The notes under the pieces: model-generated
What the model was told of the DNA's origin: nothing
Databases searched by the model: none
The model's input: the letters and a program-made list of their open reading frames with translations, nothing else
Program-made: the position numbers and the translations under genes
Shown: piece after piece, positions 147 to 25,145 of the stretch
How positions within the stretch are numbered: position 1 is the first letter of the stretch
Layout of the letters: every line of letters starts with the position of its first letter
Assembly: GCA_964231105.1 (NCBI GenBank)
Contig: CAXRJI010000034.1
Coordinates: 30,235 to 94,234 of the forward strand
From: Porticoccaceae bacterium
GTDB taxonomy: Bacteria; Pseudomonadota; Gammaproteobacteria; Pseudomonadales; Porticoccaceae
Reading direction: 5' to 3'
DNA: 64,000 nt

Positions 147-1337
147 CTAGGACAATAGTTGTGTAAATAACAACAGAATCCAGTCAAAAAAGCGTGAAAA
201 CACACCCGCTAGAGGGATATCTTTTTCCGCCACAAGAGGCGCATTGACCACTATTTCATCATTAAGACTTATTTTAAGGCGCCCTAATTCCCGTCCAGCA
301 TAAACTGGTGCTTCAATATTTGTGTCAACCACCACTGTAGTTTGCAGATTCTTTTGCTGCCCCTTTGGAAGGGTAAGGGTTATGTCATCCGCAACGACTA
401 AATTAATAAAATCATCCTGACCATACCAGACAGGCACATTTTCTTTGATATTTTCTCCGGCAGAATAGATATTTAGCGTATCGAAATGCCTAAATCCGTA
501 GGAAAATAACTTTTGCGTTTGTCTGGTTCTGGAGTCATCACTGTTAGCTCCAAGAATCACGGATATTAAGCGCATACCACGGCGTTCCGATGAAGCCACT
601 AGGCAATAACCCGCCTCTTCAGTGTAGCCAGTTTTTAAGCCATCCACGCTTGTATCACGCCACAACAGTCGGTTGCGGTTGGGTTGTTTGATATTGTTGT
701 GCTCATAGTATTTCTTAGAGTATATGCTGTAGTACTTAGGATGATGTTGGATAATTGCGCGCGCTATCAGTGTTAAATCTCTTGCCGATGTGACCATACC
801 TTCGGCGGGTAGCCCTGTAGCATTGGCATAGACTGTATTGGACATACCCATTAACTCAGCCTGAAAATTCATATTGTCGGCAAACACGGTCTCATTGCCA
901 CTTATATGCTCTGCTAGGGCGATGGCTGCATCATTGCCTGACTGAATAATAACGCCGTGCATTAGTTCCAGTACTGAGACCTTAGATTTTGCACTCAAAA
1001 ACATAGTAGAGCCCTCAGTCCTGGCACCACCCAGCCTCCAGGCATTGTCACTAACTAGAACAAGATCGGTCTCTTTTAGGCGCTTTTCTGCTATGGCTTC
1101 AGAGGTGATATAGGTGGTCATCATCTTCGCTAAACTAGCAGGAGGCAGTCGCAAGTCTGCATTGTGCTCAACAATCACATGGCCTGTATTAGCATCAACA
1201 AGGATCCACGCTTTTGCATTAAGCTTGGGAGGATCTGGAAGAAATTGTGCTGCCAAGGCTGTACCTAATTGAGCGCAACACAATACACATAAAAACGTTT
1301 TGAAAAACCATTTCTTTAACATAAAACCTATACCCAA
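147..1337 (-). CDS. dacA: D-alanyl-D-alanine carboxypeptidase (PBP5/6)
   Basis: SxxK (PASLAKMMT), SGN and KTG motifs; C-terminal PBP5 domain; start could be ATG 1322. Confidence 0.93.
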   Translation of the reverse strand: MGIGFMLKKWFFKTFLCVLCCAQLGTALAAQFLPDPPKLNAKAWILVDANTGHVIVEHNADLRLPPASLAKMMTTYITSEAIAEKRLKETDLVLVSDNAWRLGGARTEGSTMFLSAKSKVSVLELMHGVIIQSGNDAAIALAEHISGNETVFADNMNFQAELMGMSNTVYANATGLPAEGMVTSARDLTLIARAIIQHHPKYYSIYSKKYYEHNNIKQPNRNRLLWRDTSVDGLKTGYTEEAGYCLVASSERRGMRLISVILGANSDDSRTRQTQKLFSYGFRHFDTLNIYSAGENIKENVPVWYGQDDFINLVVADDITLTLPKGQQKNLQTTVVVDTNIEAPVYAGRELGRLKISLNDEIVVNAPLVAEKDIPLAGVFSRFFDWILLLFTQLLS

Positions 1338-1432
1338 ACCGCTAATCTAAACTGCATTTAAAAAGTAGGAGGTATTTTACCACCTGTCACAGTTTATGCC
1401 CATTTTTGGCAGCAAAACTTATCCTATAAAAT

Positions 1433-2302
1433 CTATTGCTTAACACTAAATGCGGAAATATTTAGACGCAACTTAAGTTGTTCCTTTGTTGTCTGTAGTT
1501 CCCTATCATCTTGCAAAGGTCCCACCCAAACTTTAAAGGCTTGACCCACCTCTGTGACTAATGCCGGAACTGTGACCGCTTGTGCTATTTTGTTGGCAAG
1601 TGTTATTGCTGATTGGTGATTTTCAAAAGCCCCTGCTTGCAGGTATCGATCCAAGTTAACAGGCGTATTGTTTTGACTGTTCGCTTTGGGCACCGAGGGT
1701 CTAGATACATAACCTGTGGCGGGATTCAGAGCCTCAACAGATACTTTGGCCGTGCCATTAGCGGCAAAACCCAGTTTTAATGCGGCTACATAAGAAAGAT
1801 CAATAATTCTCGATTCATGAAAAGGACCGCGATCATTTACTCGAACAATCACTGAGCGCCTATTTTCTTGGTTAGTCACTCTGACATAGGTGGGTATGGG
1901 CAGGGTTTTATGGGCCGCGGTCATGGCATACATATTGTAAACATCACCATTGGATGTGCGGCGACCATGGAACTTGCTTCCGTACCATGAGGCTATTCCT
2001 GTTTCTCTAAACCCTTGGCTAGAATTCAACACATAGTAAGTTTTACCAAACTGCGTATAGGGACTTTTATTACCCGCTTTAGTAATGGGTTCAATTTTTG
2101 GAACAGCATCCTTAATGGCACTGATATCAACTGCTTGTCCGGGGCCATCTTTAATTGAAATACTGAGGGTCTGAAGATCACTGCAGGCACTGAGTATCAG
2201 AGCACAGAGGATAGAATATCGAGTTTTAGTTTGAGAAAGCAGATTAACAAGTCGTGTTAAAAATGTCGCAACAGATAGACTAGCAGTTTCCAATCGAGTC
2301 AC
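1433..2302 (-). CDS. rlpA: Septal ring lytic transglycosylase RlpA
   Basis: Lipobox LSAC; ASWYG..FHGR, TAAHKTLP, VRVNDRGPF, RIIDLS; C-terminal SPOR (YLQAGAF). Confidence 0.93.
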   Translation of the reverse strand: MTRLETASLSVATFLTRLVNLLSQTKTRYSILCALILSACSDLQTLSISIKDGPGQAVDISAIKDAVPKIEPITKAGNKSPYTQFGKTYYVLNSSQGFRETGIASWYGSKFHGRRTSNGDVYNMYAMTAAHKTLPIPTYVRVTNQENRRSVIVRVNDRGPFHESRIIDLSYVAALKLGFAANGTAKVSVEALNPATGYVSRPSVPKANSQNNTPVNLDRYLQAGAFENHQSAITLANKIAQAVTVPALVTEVGQAFKVWVGPLQDDRELQTTKEQLKLRLNISAFSVKQ

Positions 2303-21666: not shown

Positions 21667-21704
21667 CTAAAAAACCGCAGTTAACATCAACTGCGGTTTT
21701 TTAG
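21667..21704. terminator. Bidirectional-type intrinsic terminator ending the TBDR transcript
   Basis: CTAAAAAACCGCAGTT-aacatc-AACTGCGGTTTTTTAG, a 16-bp stem with A/T tracts on both sides. Confidence 0.88.
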
Positions 21705-21757: not shown

Positions 21758-23944
21758 CTAGAAGGAATAGCTAGCCTTTATACCCAGGTTTCTACCAGGT
21801 AATGGCACCTCGTCTTTAACAAAAGAGCTATGATTTCTAGCCACTTCGTCAAGAAGGTTTTTACCAAACAGAGACAGGGTTAAGTTTTGCCCAGGACTTA
21901 GCTCAACTGTTTTTGACAGATTTAGATTTAACATTTTATACCCATCAGTAGCAGTCTCATGCTCAGCTGTATCATTTTGATCTTGAACATCATTGAGAGA
22001 CAGTGAGGCTCTTAGCCCATCCTCTACATAGGAAACTTTGTAGAGATTTCTATCGGGAACCATGCGCAGGATATTACTGCCATCGGCAAAGGTACCTGAA
22101 ACTGAATCCTTGGCAAAAGATAGGGTCAGTTCACCACGCGCTAGCTCAAAGGTCTTACCGATCTCTAGTTCATAGCCATCCAATTCAGCGTCTTGTTGCA
22201 CATACTCAGCATGAATTAAATCACCATGATCATGGGGATCAACAGCATTGGGGTCTTCATTAGGATGGTCATCGTCATCATCGGGATGCCCCTCGTCATG
22301 ATCTTCCTCGTCCAATAAGTAGATATAGTTATCGACATCATTTTGGAAGAAGGTTAAGGCGGCGTAGAAACCCTCATTTTCATAGTTAAAGCTCAGATCA
22401 ATATTATTGGAAGTTTCGGATTGCAAATTAATATTGCCTTCTTCATACCTAGCCGTCGATAGGTGAGGCCCATCCATTAGAAGTTCTACTGCTGTAGGTG
22501 CCCTTTCAACACTAGAAAGACCAATATTGATCTTTAACTGATCACTGATATCCGTACTTAGGCTTAAGGCAAAACTGGTGCTGTTGATATCTTTTTCAAA
22601 GGACTCCAGTTCACCATCATGATTAAGCGACCCTTTACGGCTGATTTGATCATGCCGAATACCAAAATCAAGATGATACGCATCGAACTCTTTATCAACA
22701 TAATAACCCAGTGTTAATTCATCACTTTGTGTTGGATTAATAAAGGCTTCTTCACCGATTACAGAGACATCTTCTTTTGCAACGTTAAGCGCTATCTTTT
22801 GCGACACTGTGTCATTGCTTAAATCAAATATAGCACGGTATTCCGTAGCATCATTATTAAAGGTTGTTGGGCCCTCTTCAGTATGCCCTTCCTCAGCAAT
22901 GTGTTGTTCAGTATGGGAATATTCAGAATCACGGTAGTGATAGTCAACTTTTTTCAGCCAACCATTACCCACATTAAATGAACCTCTAAAGCTTAGAACC
23001 TCAGACTTTGTATCAGCAAAGATTCTTTCTTCTTCATGATCATCATCCTCTGGATGATCCTCATCTTCTGGGTGATCCTCATCTTCTGGATGGTCACCAT
23101 CTTCTGGATGATCATCATCCTCGGGATGCTCATCACCATGAAAAGGAATACCATAGAGGCTTTCATTATCAGTATAAGCAAGACCAACAAAACCCCAGTC
23201 TCCAGTTTTAGACACGCCCAGACGAGAAAAGTTAAACTCCATATCGGTATTGCTTAGAGAATCGCTTTCTTCCTCGTCGGGGTGATGCCCATCACCCTCT
23301 CCCTCATGGCTAATTGCGCCCTCGGGAATATCGTAGTTTTCGAACTGCGAGTCTTTATGGGCAAAACTTAGATTTAGACCACCCACATTATTTTGATAAG
23401 AAAGATCATAACCGTCCCCATCATTTACTGATTGGGTTTCCAAGCCAAGTTTAAATGTAGGCTTTTCAAAGTTTTGTTTGGCAATGGTGTTATCTACAAT
23501 ATTAATAATTCCGCCAATACTGCCATTAGAATAAAGTAGCGAGGAGGGACCTCTAACCACTTCTATTTGCTGAATATTATTCATATCAACATCATTGATA
23601 TGATCTGGACCAAGACCCGAAGCATCTCTAACCACAACACCATTATTAAGAATTTTTACTCGGCTACCAGACATACCCCGAATAATGGGTTGACCCACGG
23701 CTGCGCCGTAGTCACTGGTTGATAGACCCACCAAATCACCTAAACTAGCACCCAAACTCTGGGTTGCATCATTGGCAATGGCGCTACCATCAACAATATG
23801 CAATGGGTTGGAGATGCTATCTGCTGTAGCATCAATCAATGACGATGTAACAATAATTTCTTCAATATCACCGGCCAATGCGCCAGTCGACAAATGCATA
23901 ACGCAAGCTGCCAGAGGCAACTTTCTCGCGATAAACTTATTCAT
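21758..23944 (-). CDS. TonB-dependent receptor, ZnuD-like (zinc/metal uptake)
   Basis: TonB box IEEIIVTS; plug SLG..L..L.G......G.....PIIRGM.G.RVKIL.NG; two His/Asp/Glu-rich loops; C-terminal NHSSFVKDEVPLPGRNLGIKASYSF ending in Phe. Confidence 0.88.
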   Translation of the reverse strand: MNKFIARKLPLAACVMHLSTGALAGDIEEIIVTSSLIDATADSISNPLHIVDGSAIANDATQSLGASLGDLVGLSTSDYGAAVGQPIIRGMSGSRVKILNNGVVVRDASGLGPDHINDVDMNNIQQIEVVRGPSSLLYSNGSIGGIINIVDNTIAKQNFEKPTFKLGLETQSVNDGDGYDLSYQNNVGGLNLSFAHKDSQFENYDIPEGAISHEGEGDGHHPDEEESDSLSNTDMEFNFSRLGVSKTGDWGFVGLAYTDNESLYGIPFHGDEHPEDDDHPEDGDHPEDEDHPEDEDHPEDDDHEEERIFADTKSEVLSFRGSFNVGNGWLKKVDYHYRDSEYSHTEQHIAEEGHTEEGPTTFNNDATEYRAIFDLSNDTVSQKIALNVAKEDVSVIGEEAFINPTQSDELTLGYYVDKEFDAYHLDFGIRHDQISRKGSLNHDGELESFEKDINSTSFALSLSTDISDQLKINIGLSSVERAPTAVELLMDGPHLSTARYEEGNINLQSETSNNIDLSFNYENEGFYAALTFFQNDVDNYIYLLDEEDHDEGHPDDDDDHPNEDPNAVDPHDHGDLIHAEYVQQDAELDGYELEIGKTFELARGELTLSFAKDSVSGTFADGSNILRMVPDRNLYKVSYVEDGLRASLSLNDVQDQNDTAEHETATDGYKMLNLNLSKTVELSPGQNLTLSLFGKNLLDEVARNHSSFVKDEVPLPGRNLGIKASYSF
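23039..23128 (-). repeat. 5 x 18-bp tandem repeat encoding HPED(D/G/E)D
   Basis: Plus-strand units atcatcatcctctggatg / atcctcatcttctgggtg / atcctcatcttctggatg / gtcaccatcttctggatg / atcatcatcctcgggatg. Confidence 0.95.
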
Positions 23945-24012
23945 AATGTTTCCTCTAAATATATATCTTATGCGCCAATTTCAGGCGCCAATTGACCTCC
24001 TTTTAAAAGAGG

Positions 24013-24438
24013 CTAAACGGATAATCTAGAGGTTTGAGGGGGTGCTCTGGCGAGAAAAGCTGCACGGGGTGCAGAATAAAAAGAACGAGATAATACAACG
24101 AGTTCGTTTGAGACAAGCGCTGCATAATCAATGGCTAAGTAATCAGGCGCAACACTGGAACTACTATTTTGCAGAACGGTATAACTACACTGCTCAGCAC
24201 TAAAACCATAATGCTTAGAATTTTTTGAGTGCTGAGAATCTTCCCCATGATCATGATGCTCTGCGTGCTCGTGATGGCCAGCATGGTCATAATGGGCGGC
24301 ATATAAGAAGTCACCGGAATGATCATTATGATCATGGGCAACTTCAAGCGTGGTTCCCAGACCCAGCATAAAGCTGAGAAAAACCACAACAGCTAATCTA
24401 AAAGATTCTTTGCCTGTATAATTATCACGAAGGGACAA
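24013..24438 (-). CDS. His-rich membrane-targeted leader protein with C-terminal RAPP motif (DUF2946/CruR-like)
   Basis: Likely TTG start at 24438 with GGGGTG upstream (the ORF-track start 24570 overlaps hisB). Hydrophobic segment, then AHDHNDH...HYDHAGHHEHAEHHDHG, then ..FLARAPP (24037-24048). Lies 68 bp upstream of the TBDR. Confidence 0.72.
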   Translation of the reverse strand: MSLRDNYTGKESFRLAVVVFLSFMLGLGTTLEVAHDHNDHSGDFLYAAHYDHAGHHEHAEHHDHGEDSQHSKNSKHYGFSAEQCSYTVLQNSSSSVAPDYLAIDYAALVSNELVVLSRSFYSAPRAAFLARAPPQTSRLSV

Positions 24439-24471
24439 TTTTCGCGTGCACCCCAAAAAAATAAGCCGGAA

Positions 24472-24501
24472 ATTGTAGTTTGTTTTAAATTGTAAAATCA
24501 A
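24472..24501 (-). promoter_or_regulatory. Candidate sigma70 promoter for the leader ORF/TBDR
   Basis: Minus strand TTGATT-18 bp-TACAAT; -10 about 33 bp upstream of TTG 24438; back-to-back with the hisB -10. Confidence 0.4.
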
Positions 24502-24514
24502 ACACTTTTGCGCG

Positions 24515-24520
24515 TATAAT
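24515..24520 (+). promoter_or_regulatory. -10 element of hisB
   Basis: TATAAT flanked by GC-rich GCGCG/GCGCAC, about 30 bp before the hisB ATG. Confidence 0.55.
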
Positions 24521-24551
24521 GCGCACCTAAAATTCGTTATTGGAGAATGTA

Positions 24552-25145
24552 ATGACTGAGCGCACCGCAACCGTAACGCGCGATACTTTGGAATCTCAAA
24601 TTACCGTTACGATTAACCTAGACGGAAGCGGAAAAGCCAATTTAAATACCCCAGTGCCTTTCCTAAATCATATGCTGGATCAAATCGCTCGTCATGGTTT
24701 AGTGGACTTGGATATTCAAGCAGCTGGTGATACAGAGATTGATGACCATCACACAGTTGAAGATATAGGTATTACTCTGGGCATGGCCATATCAGAGGCT
24801 ATTGGCGATAAAAAAGGCCTGACCCGCTATGGTCACGCCTATGTCCCCCTTGATGAAGCACTGTCGCGAGTCGTTATGGATTTCTCAGGACGTCCAGGCC
24901 TTATTATGCATGCAGATTTTTTACGCAGCCATGTGGGTGGCTTTGACGTTGATTTAACCAGAGAATTTTTCCAAGGCTTTGTAAATCACAGTTTAGTGAC
25001 ACTGCATATTGATAACTTGCGAGGGGCCAATGCCCACCATCAGGTCGAAACAATTTTTAAGGCCTTTGGTCGTGCTTTGCGTATGGCTATTAATTTAGAC
25101 CCCCGCATCAGTGGTGTTACTCCCTCTACTAAAGGCACACTTTAA
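24552..25145 (+). CDS. hisB: Imidazoleglycerol-phosphate dehydratase (monofunctional)
   Basis: [46 protein letters not shown]; SD GGAG before ATG 24552. Confidence 0.97.

Follow-up and report, generated by a model that had tools for sequence, protein, structure and literature searches.

On the minus strand of a 64,000-nucleotide stretch of Porticoccaceae bacterium DNA (contig CAXRJI010000034.1, positions 30,235 to 94,234; hereafter the window, numbered from its first letter), a small leader gene lies directly upstream of the gene for a TonB-dependent receptor. Judged by its sequence, the leader is a divergent CruR/DUF2946-type peptide with a predicted metal site and a RAPP arrest motif, and the end of its coding region is complementary to the Shine-Dalgarno (SD) sequence of the receptor gene. 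The predicted fold that masks this SD is retained by compensating changes in about 40 related marine loci and looks like a real switch. The two genes and their parts are as follows.

24013..24438, minus strand: leader open reading frame (ORF), an upstream ORF of 141 codons taken from the ORF list, encoding a divergent arrest peptide of the CruR/DUF2946 type; start TTG at 24438-24436, stop TAG at 24015-24013
24337..24438, minus strand: N-terminal export signal, residues 1-34, ending ...FRLAVVVFLSFMLGLGTTLEVA|HD, read from the translation
24211..24336, minus strand: His-rich segment, an insertion of about 40 residues relative to minimal homologues of 89 residues (alignment A3)
24187..24189, minus strand: C84, the sole Cys of the leader, in the motif C-x-x-[ST]-V-x-Q, invariant in 28/28 homologues
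24037..24048, minus strand: RAPP codons AGA GCA CCC CCT (R131-A-P-P134), read from the sequence
24037..24042, minus strand: expected stall, with CCC (24042-24040) in the P site and CCT (24039-24037) in the A site, from the CruR toeprint (PMC12992588)
21758..23944, minus strand: TonB-dependent receptor of 728 amino acids, ZnuD-like, with His/Asp-rich loops; Pfam Plug and barrel domains

The leader peptide and its relatives

Leaders of this kind have the same overall plan: a signal peptide, then A-H-x-H-x-x-H-x-x-x-x-C-x-x-[ST]-V-x-Q, a variable stretch, and ARAPP. The TTG start in the window was chosen by alignment with ATG-initiated homologues. All homologues keep the hydrophobic core of the N-terminus, and the window leader has, as judged by eye, an E-V-A cleavage-like site. 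On the N-terminal side of the Cys, homologues differ in the presence and length (0-50 residues) of His-rich insertions; that of the window measures 40 residues, and the whole protein contains 13 His. ARAPP is invariant across all homologues in the alignment. Exactly 46 residues separate the Cys from the Arg of RAPP in all 28 homologues, while the roughly 40 intervening residues vary freely. Counted from the position of a second Cys, the spacing in the window is 43, which is 2 fewer than in CruR. The C-terminus of the leader reads ...AFLARAPPQTSRLSV, leaving 7 residues between RAPP and the stop codon, where homologues have 1-3.

The CXXC metal motif is not found in the window leader, which reads C84-S-Y-T at this place, and the 28 homologues of types A and B likewise carry C-x-x-[ST] without exception. 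In another group of leaders from the genus (type D), the sequence LCSICVLQ stands where the window has its Cys motif, with C-S-I-C at the same position. Because type D aligns with the window type, the window Cys appears to be the first Cys of a CXXC motif whose second Cys has been replaced by Ser/Thr. The Pfam model for DUF2946 (PF11162) matches the leader with 21.3 bits (E 5e-4) over profile positions 34-117 of 117, below its gathering score of 23.7, and five of eight homologues give matches that are likewise sub-threshold. All 63 database homologues are labelled 'hypothetical', with a weak DUF2946 match in only two. Since CXXC-bearing leaders of the same genus also score under the cut-off, the model is seemingly insensitive to this lineage.

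Two published systems provide the framework for what follows. In Bordetella pertussis, RAPP arrest on the DUF2946 leader CruR keeps a downstream TonB-dependent transporter on; copper, acting via a CXXC motif at a fixed distance of 45 residues (+/- 1-2), releases the arrest and permits Rho-dependent termination, and mutation of RAPP abolishes transporter expression (PMC9426467). Toeprinting placed the two Pro codons of CruR in the P and A sites of the stalled ribosome, and the same study finds RAPP/RGPP leaders to be over-represented ahead of TonB-dependent receptors (PMC12992588). In Rhodobacter capsulatus, a ribosome stalled on the DUF2946-like leader CutF opens the stem-loop in which the SD of cutO is hidden (PMC9973294, bioRxiv 10.1101/2025.02.05.636593).

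The leader ORF itself also contains a 6-bp hairpin, CUGCAC-CCC-GUGCAG, followed by CUUUUCU (24060-24074, minus strand). Its end is 12 nt short of the RAPP codons, so that it would lie immediately to the rear of a ribosome stalled there. A terminator scan flagged it, although the overall count of that scan was not above chance.

A conserved, predicted helix over the receptor Shine-Dalgarno sequence

The receptor gene starts with ATG at 23944-23942, and its SD, GAGG at 23955-23952, sits 7 nt 5′ of this codon. The fold around the SD comprises three helices.

24032-24024 and 24023-24020, minus strand: P1, 5′ strand (anti-SD), CCUCUAGAU plus UAUC; in the minimum-energy fold, conserved and covarying
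23967-23964 and 23960-23952, minus strand: P1, 3′ strand, GAUA plus AUUUAGAGG; holds the receptor SD
23995..24013, minus strand: P2, hairpin GCCUCUUU / AAGGAGGU; in the fold
23972..23988, minus strand: P3, hairpin GCGCC, loop UGAAAUU, GGCGC; in the fold and in the RNAalifold consensus

The initial annotation of this region had proposed that an anti-SD segment just past the RAPP codons, CCTCTAGA (24032-24025), pairs with TTTAGAGG (23959-23952) in 8 bp with one G-U, around a nested hairpin formed by CCTCTT (24012-24007) and AAGGAGG (24002-23996). Both elements are present in the sequence as described, the nested hairpin being P2. RNAfold, applied to 24050-23930, predicts the anti-SD pairing in the minimum-energy structure as well as in the centroid, and extends it to 9 + 4 bp; in this form P1 closes a three-way junction with P2 and P3. 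The energy of the fold is -30.3 kcal/mol, compared to -20.8 +/- 3.2 kcal/mol in 200 shuffles (z -2.97), of which three fold as well. When the 24 nt past the Pro-Pro codons are paired with the SD region, the window duplex reaches -11.2 kcal/mol versus -5.9 kcal/mol for dinucleotide shuffles (p ~0.01). A search of Rfam across 23800-24600 gave no match at E <= 1.

Of 79 genomes from the Porticoccaceae genus, 46 contain the leader according to a profile search. The TonB receptor gene follows 67-94 nt downstream of it in 29/29 loci (68 nt in the window), and nearly all genus genomes show the same layout, with hisB divergent, then the leader, the spacer and a ZnuD-like receptor gene (loci L002-L041 among those compared). 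Because this layout is shared throughout the genus loci, the leader-receptor unit would seem to be ancestral at the site, rather than a mobile or recently inserted cassette. Folded singly, 27 of 29 distinct loci pair the SD (-14 to -8) with the leader 3′ end at a probability of at least 0.5. Over 30 loci, duplexes between the leader end and its own SD average -9.7 kcal/mol, compared to -3.9 kcal/mol for 1060 other windows of the same leaders, and for most loci the shuffle p is ~0.01. The predicted partner of the SD is a segment just downstream of the expected stall codon, and this arrangement is conserved.

In orthologous loci the helix is not only kept but carries compensatory changes. When P1 and P3 were imposed as a named structure on a MAFFT alignment of the loci (A2), 86% of cells were paired, and 92% of those in the P1 core. 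The covariation score of this structure is 0.381, compared to 0.229 for shuffled alignments (0/500 reach the observed value) and 0.06-0.18 in slid registers. Column pair 19:125, for example, is C-G in 15 loci and U-A in 9, and pair 27:122 is C-G in 18, U-G in 9 and U-A in 2. In P3, six of the seven pairs in the RNAalifold consensus show two-sided changes. At least five differing complementary sequence pairs mask the SD among the genus loci: CCUCUAAA:UUUAGAGG, CCUUUAAA:UUUAAAGG, GUCUUUAAA:UUUAGAGAC, AGCGUCU:AGACGCU in a shifted register, and the window's own (C/U)CUCUAGAU:AUUUAGAGG. Four close relatives (L030, L044-L046) keep P1, P2 and P3, with P2 varying in sequence (CUCCU/AGGGAG, CCCU/AGGG, CCC/GGG). 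The anti-SD keeps a distance of 4-5 nt from the Pro-Pro codons, and in the window a 1-nt indel shifted the stop codon three codons downstream. Taken at the sequence level, these natural compensatory mutations are unusually rich support for SD masking in CruR-type receptor operons.

Genomes seemingly without a leader of the window type carry other RAPP leaders in front of receptor genes. Type C (L047-L058; ECDSCH...YLSRAPPKV) stands before a receptor with about 60% identity to that of the window, and its Pro-Pro codons (CCGCCU) are themselves the anti-SD, pairing with AGGAGG of the receptor SD (CCGCCUAAAG:CUUUAGGAGG). Type D (L059-L061; LCSICVLQ...ARAPPHNL) adjoins hisB, precedes a receptor about 30% identical to that of the window, and pairs as CACCUGUAA:UUACAGGUG. 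Types C and D arrive at the same SD pairing with unrelated sequences; neither passes the Pfam cut-off for DUF2946. Masking of the SD may be a frequent feature of receptor operons of the CruR type.

Another RAPP leader was seen in a different family of the order (genome G053, locus L007, ~1285-1770, minus strand). It reads ...HHHHHHAHH...YCPYG...SPRAPPVNR and is followed, after 78 nt, by a non-TonB gene for an exported protein, which suggests that the same kind of leader may control other metal-related outer-membrane proteins.

Two other readings of elements in the junction were considered and set aside. P3 does not qualify as an intrinsic terminator or attenuator, as no T-run directly follows its stem and the terminator scan flags nothing in the intergenic region. 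A mini-ORF of 7 codons past the AAGGAGG of P2 (TTG 23991 to TAA 23968) was rejected as well, given that L030 and L044-L046 have no SD-like word or start codon there; these loci keep the P2 hairpin despite that loss. We also observe that an apparent direct repeat at 23972-23993, GCGCCAATT, corresponds to the two arms of P3 (GCGCC/GGCGC around the palindrome GGCGCC), and that in relatives the loop varies on a retained stem.

The transcript, the ribosome and the proposed switch

Candidate transcription signals flank the two genes.

24472..24501, minus strand: candidate sigma-70 promoter, TTGATT, 18 nt, TACAAT, from a consensus scan only; back to back with hisB
21667..21704, unstranded: strong hairpin plus T-run past the receptor gene, a terminator-like site of 16 pairs

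The hairpin at 21667..21704 is the probable end of a two-gene transcript. Inspection by eye of the upstream regions revealed no Fur-like or other operator common to all loci; only the hisB -10 on the other strand and lineage-specific inverted repeats were seen. A conserved ATTATA upstream of the leader promoter is this hisB -10 (TATAAT) read on the opposite strand. Assembled metatranscriptome contigs, which report presence and not 3′ ends or ratios, cover the leader and receptor genes, indicating that both are transcribed in the sea. One contig of 718 nt from run X26, a library labelled RNA-Seq, covers window positions 23480-24190 and is about 95% identical, as expected for a related strain. 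It joins the leader 3′ end, the spacer and the receptor 5′ end, and fits a bicistronic transcript, with DNA carry-over being possible. On balance, we lean towards the view that leader and receptor form a two-gene operon under the control of a nascent-peptide switch.

How might such a switch work? We favor a combination, to which we assign a probability of roughly 0.55, of a CruR-like metal-sensing arrest leader with a CutF/SecM-like SD mask, in which arrest opens the mask and metal-triggered release closes it. The peptide encoded by the leader would be exported and would bind metal through a His/Cys site, with the RAPP arrest motif exactly 46 residues further on. In free mRNA, the 9-13 nt that begin 4 nt past the Pro-Pro codons would pair with the receptor SD in P1 and block initiation. 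A ribosome arrested at RAPP would occupy or unwind the G-C-rich 5′ edge of P1, freeing the SD so that the receptor is made. Metal would bind the site on the nascent peptide, which during arrest should be located just outside the exit tunnel, and thereby pull the chain; arrest would be released, termination would follow, P1 would re-form and receptor synthesis would cease. The sequences themselves show the motifs, the predicted fold and the way in which it is conserved and covaries; from homology and geometry we infer the arrest, the opening of P1, the binding of metal and its identity, and the direction of the switch.

The geometry was evaluated relative to the P-site codon CCC (24042-24040), with positions counted from its first base. 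P1 spans +10 to +18, or to +22 with its extension, and the orthologous helices begin, on their 5′ side, between +9 and +12. The stop codon falls inside the anti-SD in most orthologues and 10 nt beyond it in the window. To represent the ribosome footprint, the mRNA was forced to be single-stranded to a set position, and the probability that the SD is unpaired was computed. Over 40 loci, the mean rises from 0.17 in free RNA to 0.25, 0.37, 0.47, 0.51 and 0.52 with the mRNA single-stranded through +10, +11, +12, +13 and +15, respectively; the corresponding values for the window are 0.00 in free RNA, then 0.14, 0.28, 0.40, 0.40 and 0.43. In the set of 29 loci, the mean goes from 0.12 in free RNA to 0.48 with +15. 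The two computational checks named in the initial annotation, folding with and without the footprint and covariation, both support its reading, with the limit that the SD reaches an unpaired probability of 0.4-0.5 only when single-stranded mRNA extends through at least +12. The helicase site of the ribosome reportedly lies near +11, a placement attributed to Takyar et al. in 2005. Protection of mRNA from nucleases by the ribosome extends to about +15.

Several observations weigh against the proposed switch, or against the strength of the case for it. Arrest at the RAPP codons of the window is assumed by homology. G-C pairs of P1 sit at the mRNA entrance (+10), so a stalled ribosome may open the helix only partly; in the window, the SD opens just to 0.14-0.28 when the mRNA is single-stranded through +10 or +11. 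Even under constraint, weak alternative pairings cover part of the SD, which sets a ceiling of about 0.5. In two of the 29 loci folded singly (L008 and L017), pairing between the SD and the leader is weak only. RNAalifold run on A2 by itself recovered P3 and not P1; P1 was therefore evaluated as a structure named by us, which is weaker than blind prediction. Several of the covarying cells reflect few ancestral events shared by clades, not many, and two loci that carry the C-G to U-A change (L032 and L038) fall in one polytomy on the receptor tree. The base composition of the leader 3′ end is a further point on this side.

That composition is one that Rho-dependent attenuation, the published mechanism of the closest homologous system (PMC9426467), would suit. 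As in Bordetella CruR, an arrested ribosome would cover a C-rich Rho loading site at the leader 3′ end, release of the arrest would allow Rho to terminate before the receptor gene, and P1 would be secondary or act jointly with Rho. Between 24116 and 24013, C exceeds G (35% C, 14% G, ratio 2.45) in an mRNA that otherwise has more G than C; with the last ~100 nt of the leader C-rich and G-poor, a contribution from Rho is possible. Much of this C-richness, however, comes from Ala and Pro codons, and the spacer is short (68 nt here and 67-94 nt in the genus, versus 162 nt in Bordetella) and tightly structured. Rho-dependent control also leaves unexplained the at least five-way covariation of the leader end with the SD, and the RNA contig that crosses the leader-receptor junction is weak evidence against it. 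We regard this mechanism as unlikely. The logic could also be inverted, as in translational coupling: ribosomes that read through and terminate would open P1, and a stall at RAPP would leave it closed, so that stalling is OFF and metal induces it, as proposed for CutF. The position of the stop codon inside the anti-SD in most orthologues fits such a scheme, as does the start of P1 at +9 to +12, where a helix is possibly tolerated at the ribosome entrance. In the footprint computation, a ribosome that terminates frees the SD no less than one that is stalled (0.52 versus 0.25-0.51, depending on the assumed edge), and metal-induced stalling exists in the family, in CutF. Set against this, loss of RAPP in the homologous TonB-transporter system gives constitutive OFF, and hence stalling is ON there; in the window the stop codon lies 10 nt past the anti-SD while the distance to RAPP is kept, which suggests that the stall site is the reference point; and the type C anti-SD consists of the Pro-Pro codons, which are necessarily unpaired in a stalled ribosome. 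An inverted switch thus appears quite improbable to us.

Finally, the junction might have no regulatory role, serving instead to stabilise or process the mRNA or to damp receptor translation constitutively, with RAPP as a family relic. Intergenic hairpins are common and SD-like and anti-SD-like words are short, and yet ARAPP is invariant and the Cys spacing is 46 in 28/28 homologues despite free drift elsewhere. Proteomes, moreover, strongly avoid RAPP unless it is used for arrest (PMC12992588), and the anti-SD lies at a fixed distance from the stall codons. We consider the absence of a regulatory role very improbable indeed.

The metal, and comparison with known systems

For the receptor, the best family model is NCBIfam ZnuD (NF038289; E 1.2e-80, 272 bits, under the equivalog cut-off of 950 bits), and the closest solved structure is ZnuD 4RDR (E 5.9e-42). 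Its long His/Asp/Glu loops at 22227-23140, which include five tandem HPED(D/G/E)D units, fit ZnuD-like metal capture. Elsewhere in the genome, contig C41 (22567-25535) carries a canonical zinc locus in which znuA points away from zur-znuC-znuB; the interval between them holds two perfect Zur boxes of 17 bp, ATGTTATAATATAACAT, at 24600 and 24683. Only two near-matches, with 3 mismatches each, occur at other sites of the genome (C48:81381, C83:4269). Zur control of the leader-receptor unit was considered and rejected, the best match to the Zur box in 23900-24620 having 6/17 mismatches.

Our best guess for the metal is zinc, to which the receptor fold and loops point and which the H3C-like motif of the leader would fit. 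A point against this choice is that orthologous receptors about 60% identical to that of the window follow CXXC-type leaders, so a metal other than zinc may be sensed despite the ZnuD-like fold. A reading that goes further, and that we hold to be less likely than not, is that the leader is a zinc-sensing (or at least non-copper) arrest peptide to which the control of a ZnuD-type receptor has passed from Zur. The His3-Cys site (H-x-H-x-x-H-x-x-x-x-C), which directly follows the signal peptide at a distance of 46 residues from the peptidyl-transferase centre, would bind metal on leaving the tunnel or translocon; RAPP arrest would then be released and the SD mask closed. If this is true, zinc would be sensed translationally, with neither a riboswitch nor Zur.

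Metal-sensing arrest peptides (CruR, CutF) were described in 2022-2025, and the two prototypes appear to be mechanistically different, acting through Rho termination and SD unmasking, respectively. In the locus described here and in about 40 relatives, a RAPP leader of the CruR type that precedes a TonB receptor occurs together with an SD mask of the CutF/SecM type. As both halves are published (masking in CutF and SecM, the RAPP leader in CruR), the kind of mechanism is already known. Of interest here are the His-rich sensor with its single Cys, in which the second Cys is replaced and His clusters are added, its place before a zinc-type receptor without a Zur box, and the rich natural covariation. 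The locus is a concrete candidate for translational sensing of a non-copper metal in abundant marine Porticoccaceae.

The analogy to secM-secA drawn in the initial annotation is apt, and there are closer precedents in CutF, with its SD-shielding stem-loop, and in CruR, a RAPP leader before a TonB-dependent transporter. Like CruR (Bp2923) ahead of bfrG, the window leader is small, exported and first in its operon, lies directly before a TonB-dependent transporter gene, and carries a C-terminal RAPP. In both, a metal Cys stands at a fixed distance from the arrest motif (46 residues from the sole Cys in the window; for CruR, 45 when counted from the second Cys of CXXC and 48 when counted from the first), and the expected logic is that of an uptake gene, with stalling ON and metal OFF. 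The two differ in the metal motif (C-x-x-T plus a His cluster in the window, CXXC in CruR), in the number of residues past RAPP (7 versus three), in the length of the spacer (68 nt versus 162 nt) and in the receptor, which is ZnuD-like here and copper-linked for CruR. Unlike CruR, the window leader scores under the Pfam family cut-off and is accompanied by a covarying SD-masking helix, whereas CruR has been shown to act by Rho-dependent termination.

With CutF/cutO, the window shares a stem-loop between leader and target that shields the SD and that a stall on a C-terminal Pro motif would allow to open, as well as a leader with a Sec signal peptide and a Cys/His metal site. CutF, however, controls a detoxifying multicopper oxidase, and copper induces its stall; because the target in the window is an uptake receptor, metal should instead release the stall. 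CutF also has CxxxC and a Pro-rich tail, as opposed to RAPP and a helix that closes a three-way junction. The resemblance to SecM-secA of E. coli, MifM-yidC2 and ApdA/ApdP (PMC7897499, PMC10951233) lies in a RAPP/RAGP-type arrest motif whose Pro takes the A site, and in the SD-sequestering helix just downstream of the stall site, which the arrested ribosome opens in those systems and would open in the window. Those peptides monitor export or membrane insertion, are released by the pulling force of Sec or YidC, and control localisation factors; in contrast to the window leader, they have no metal site.

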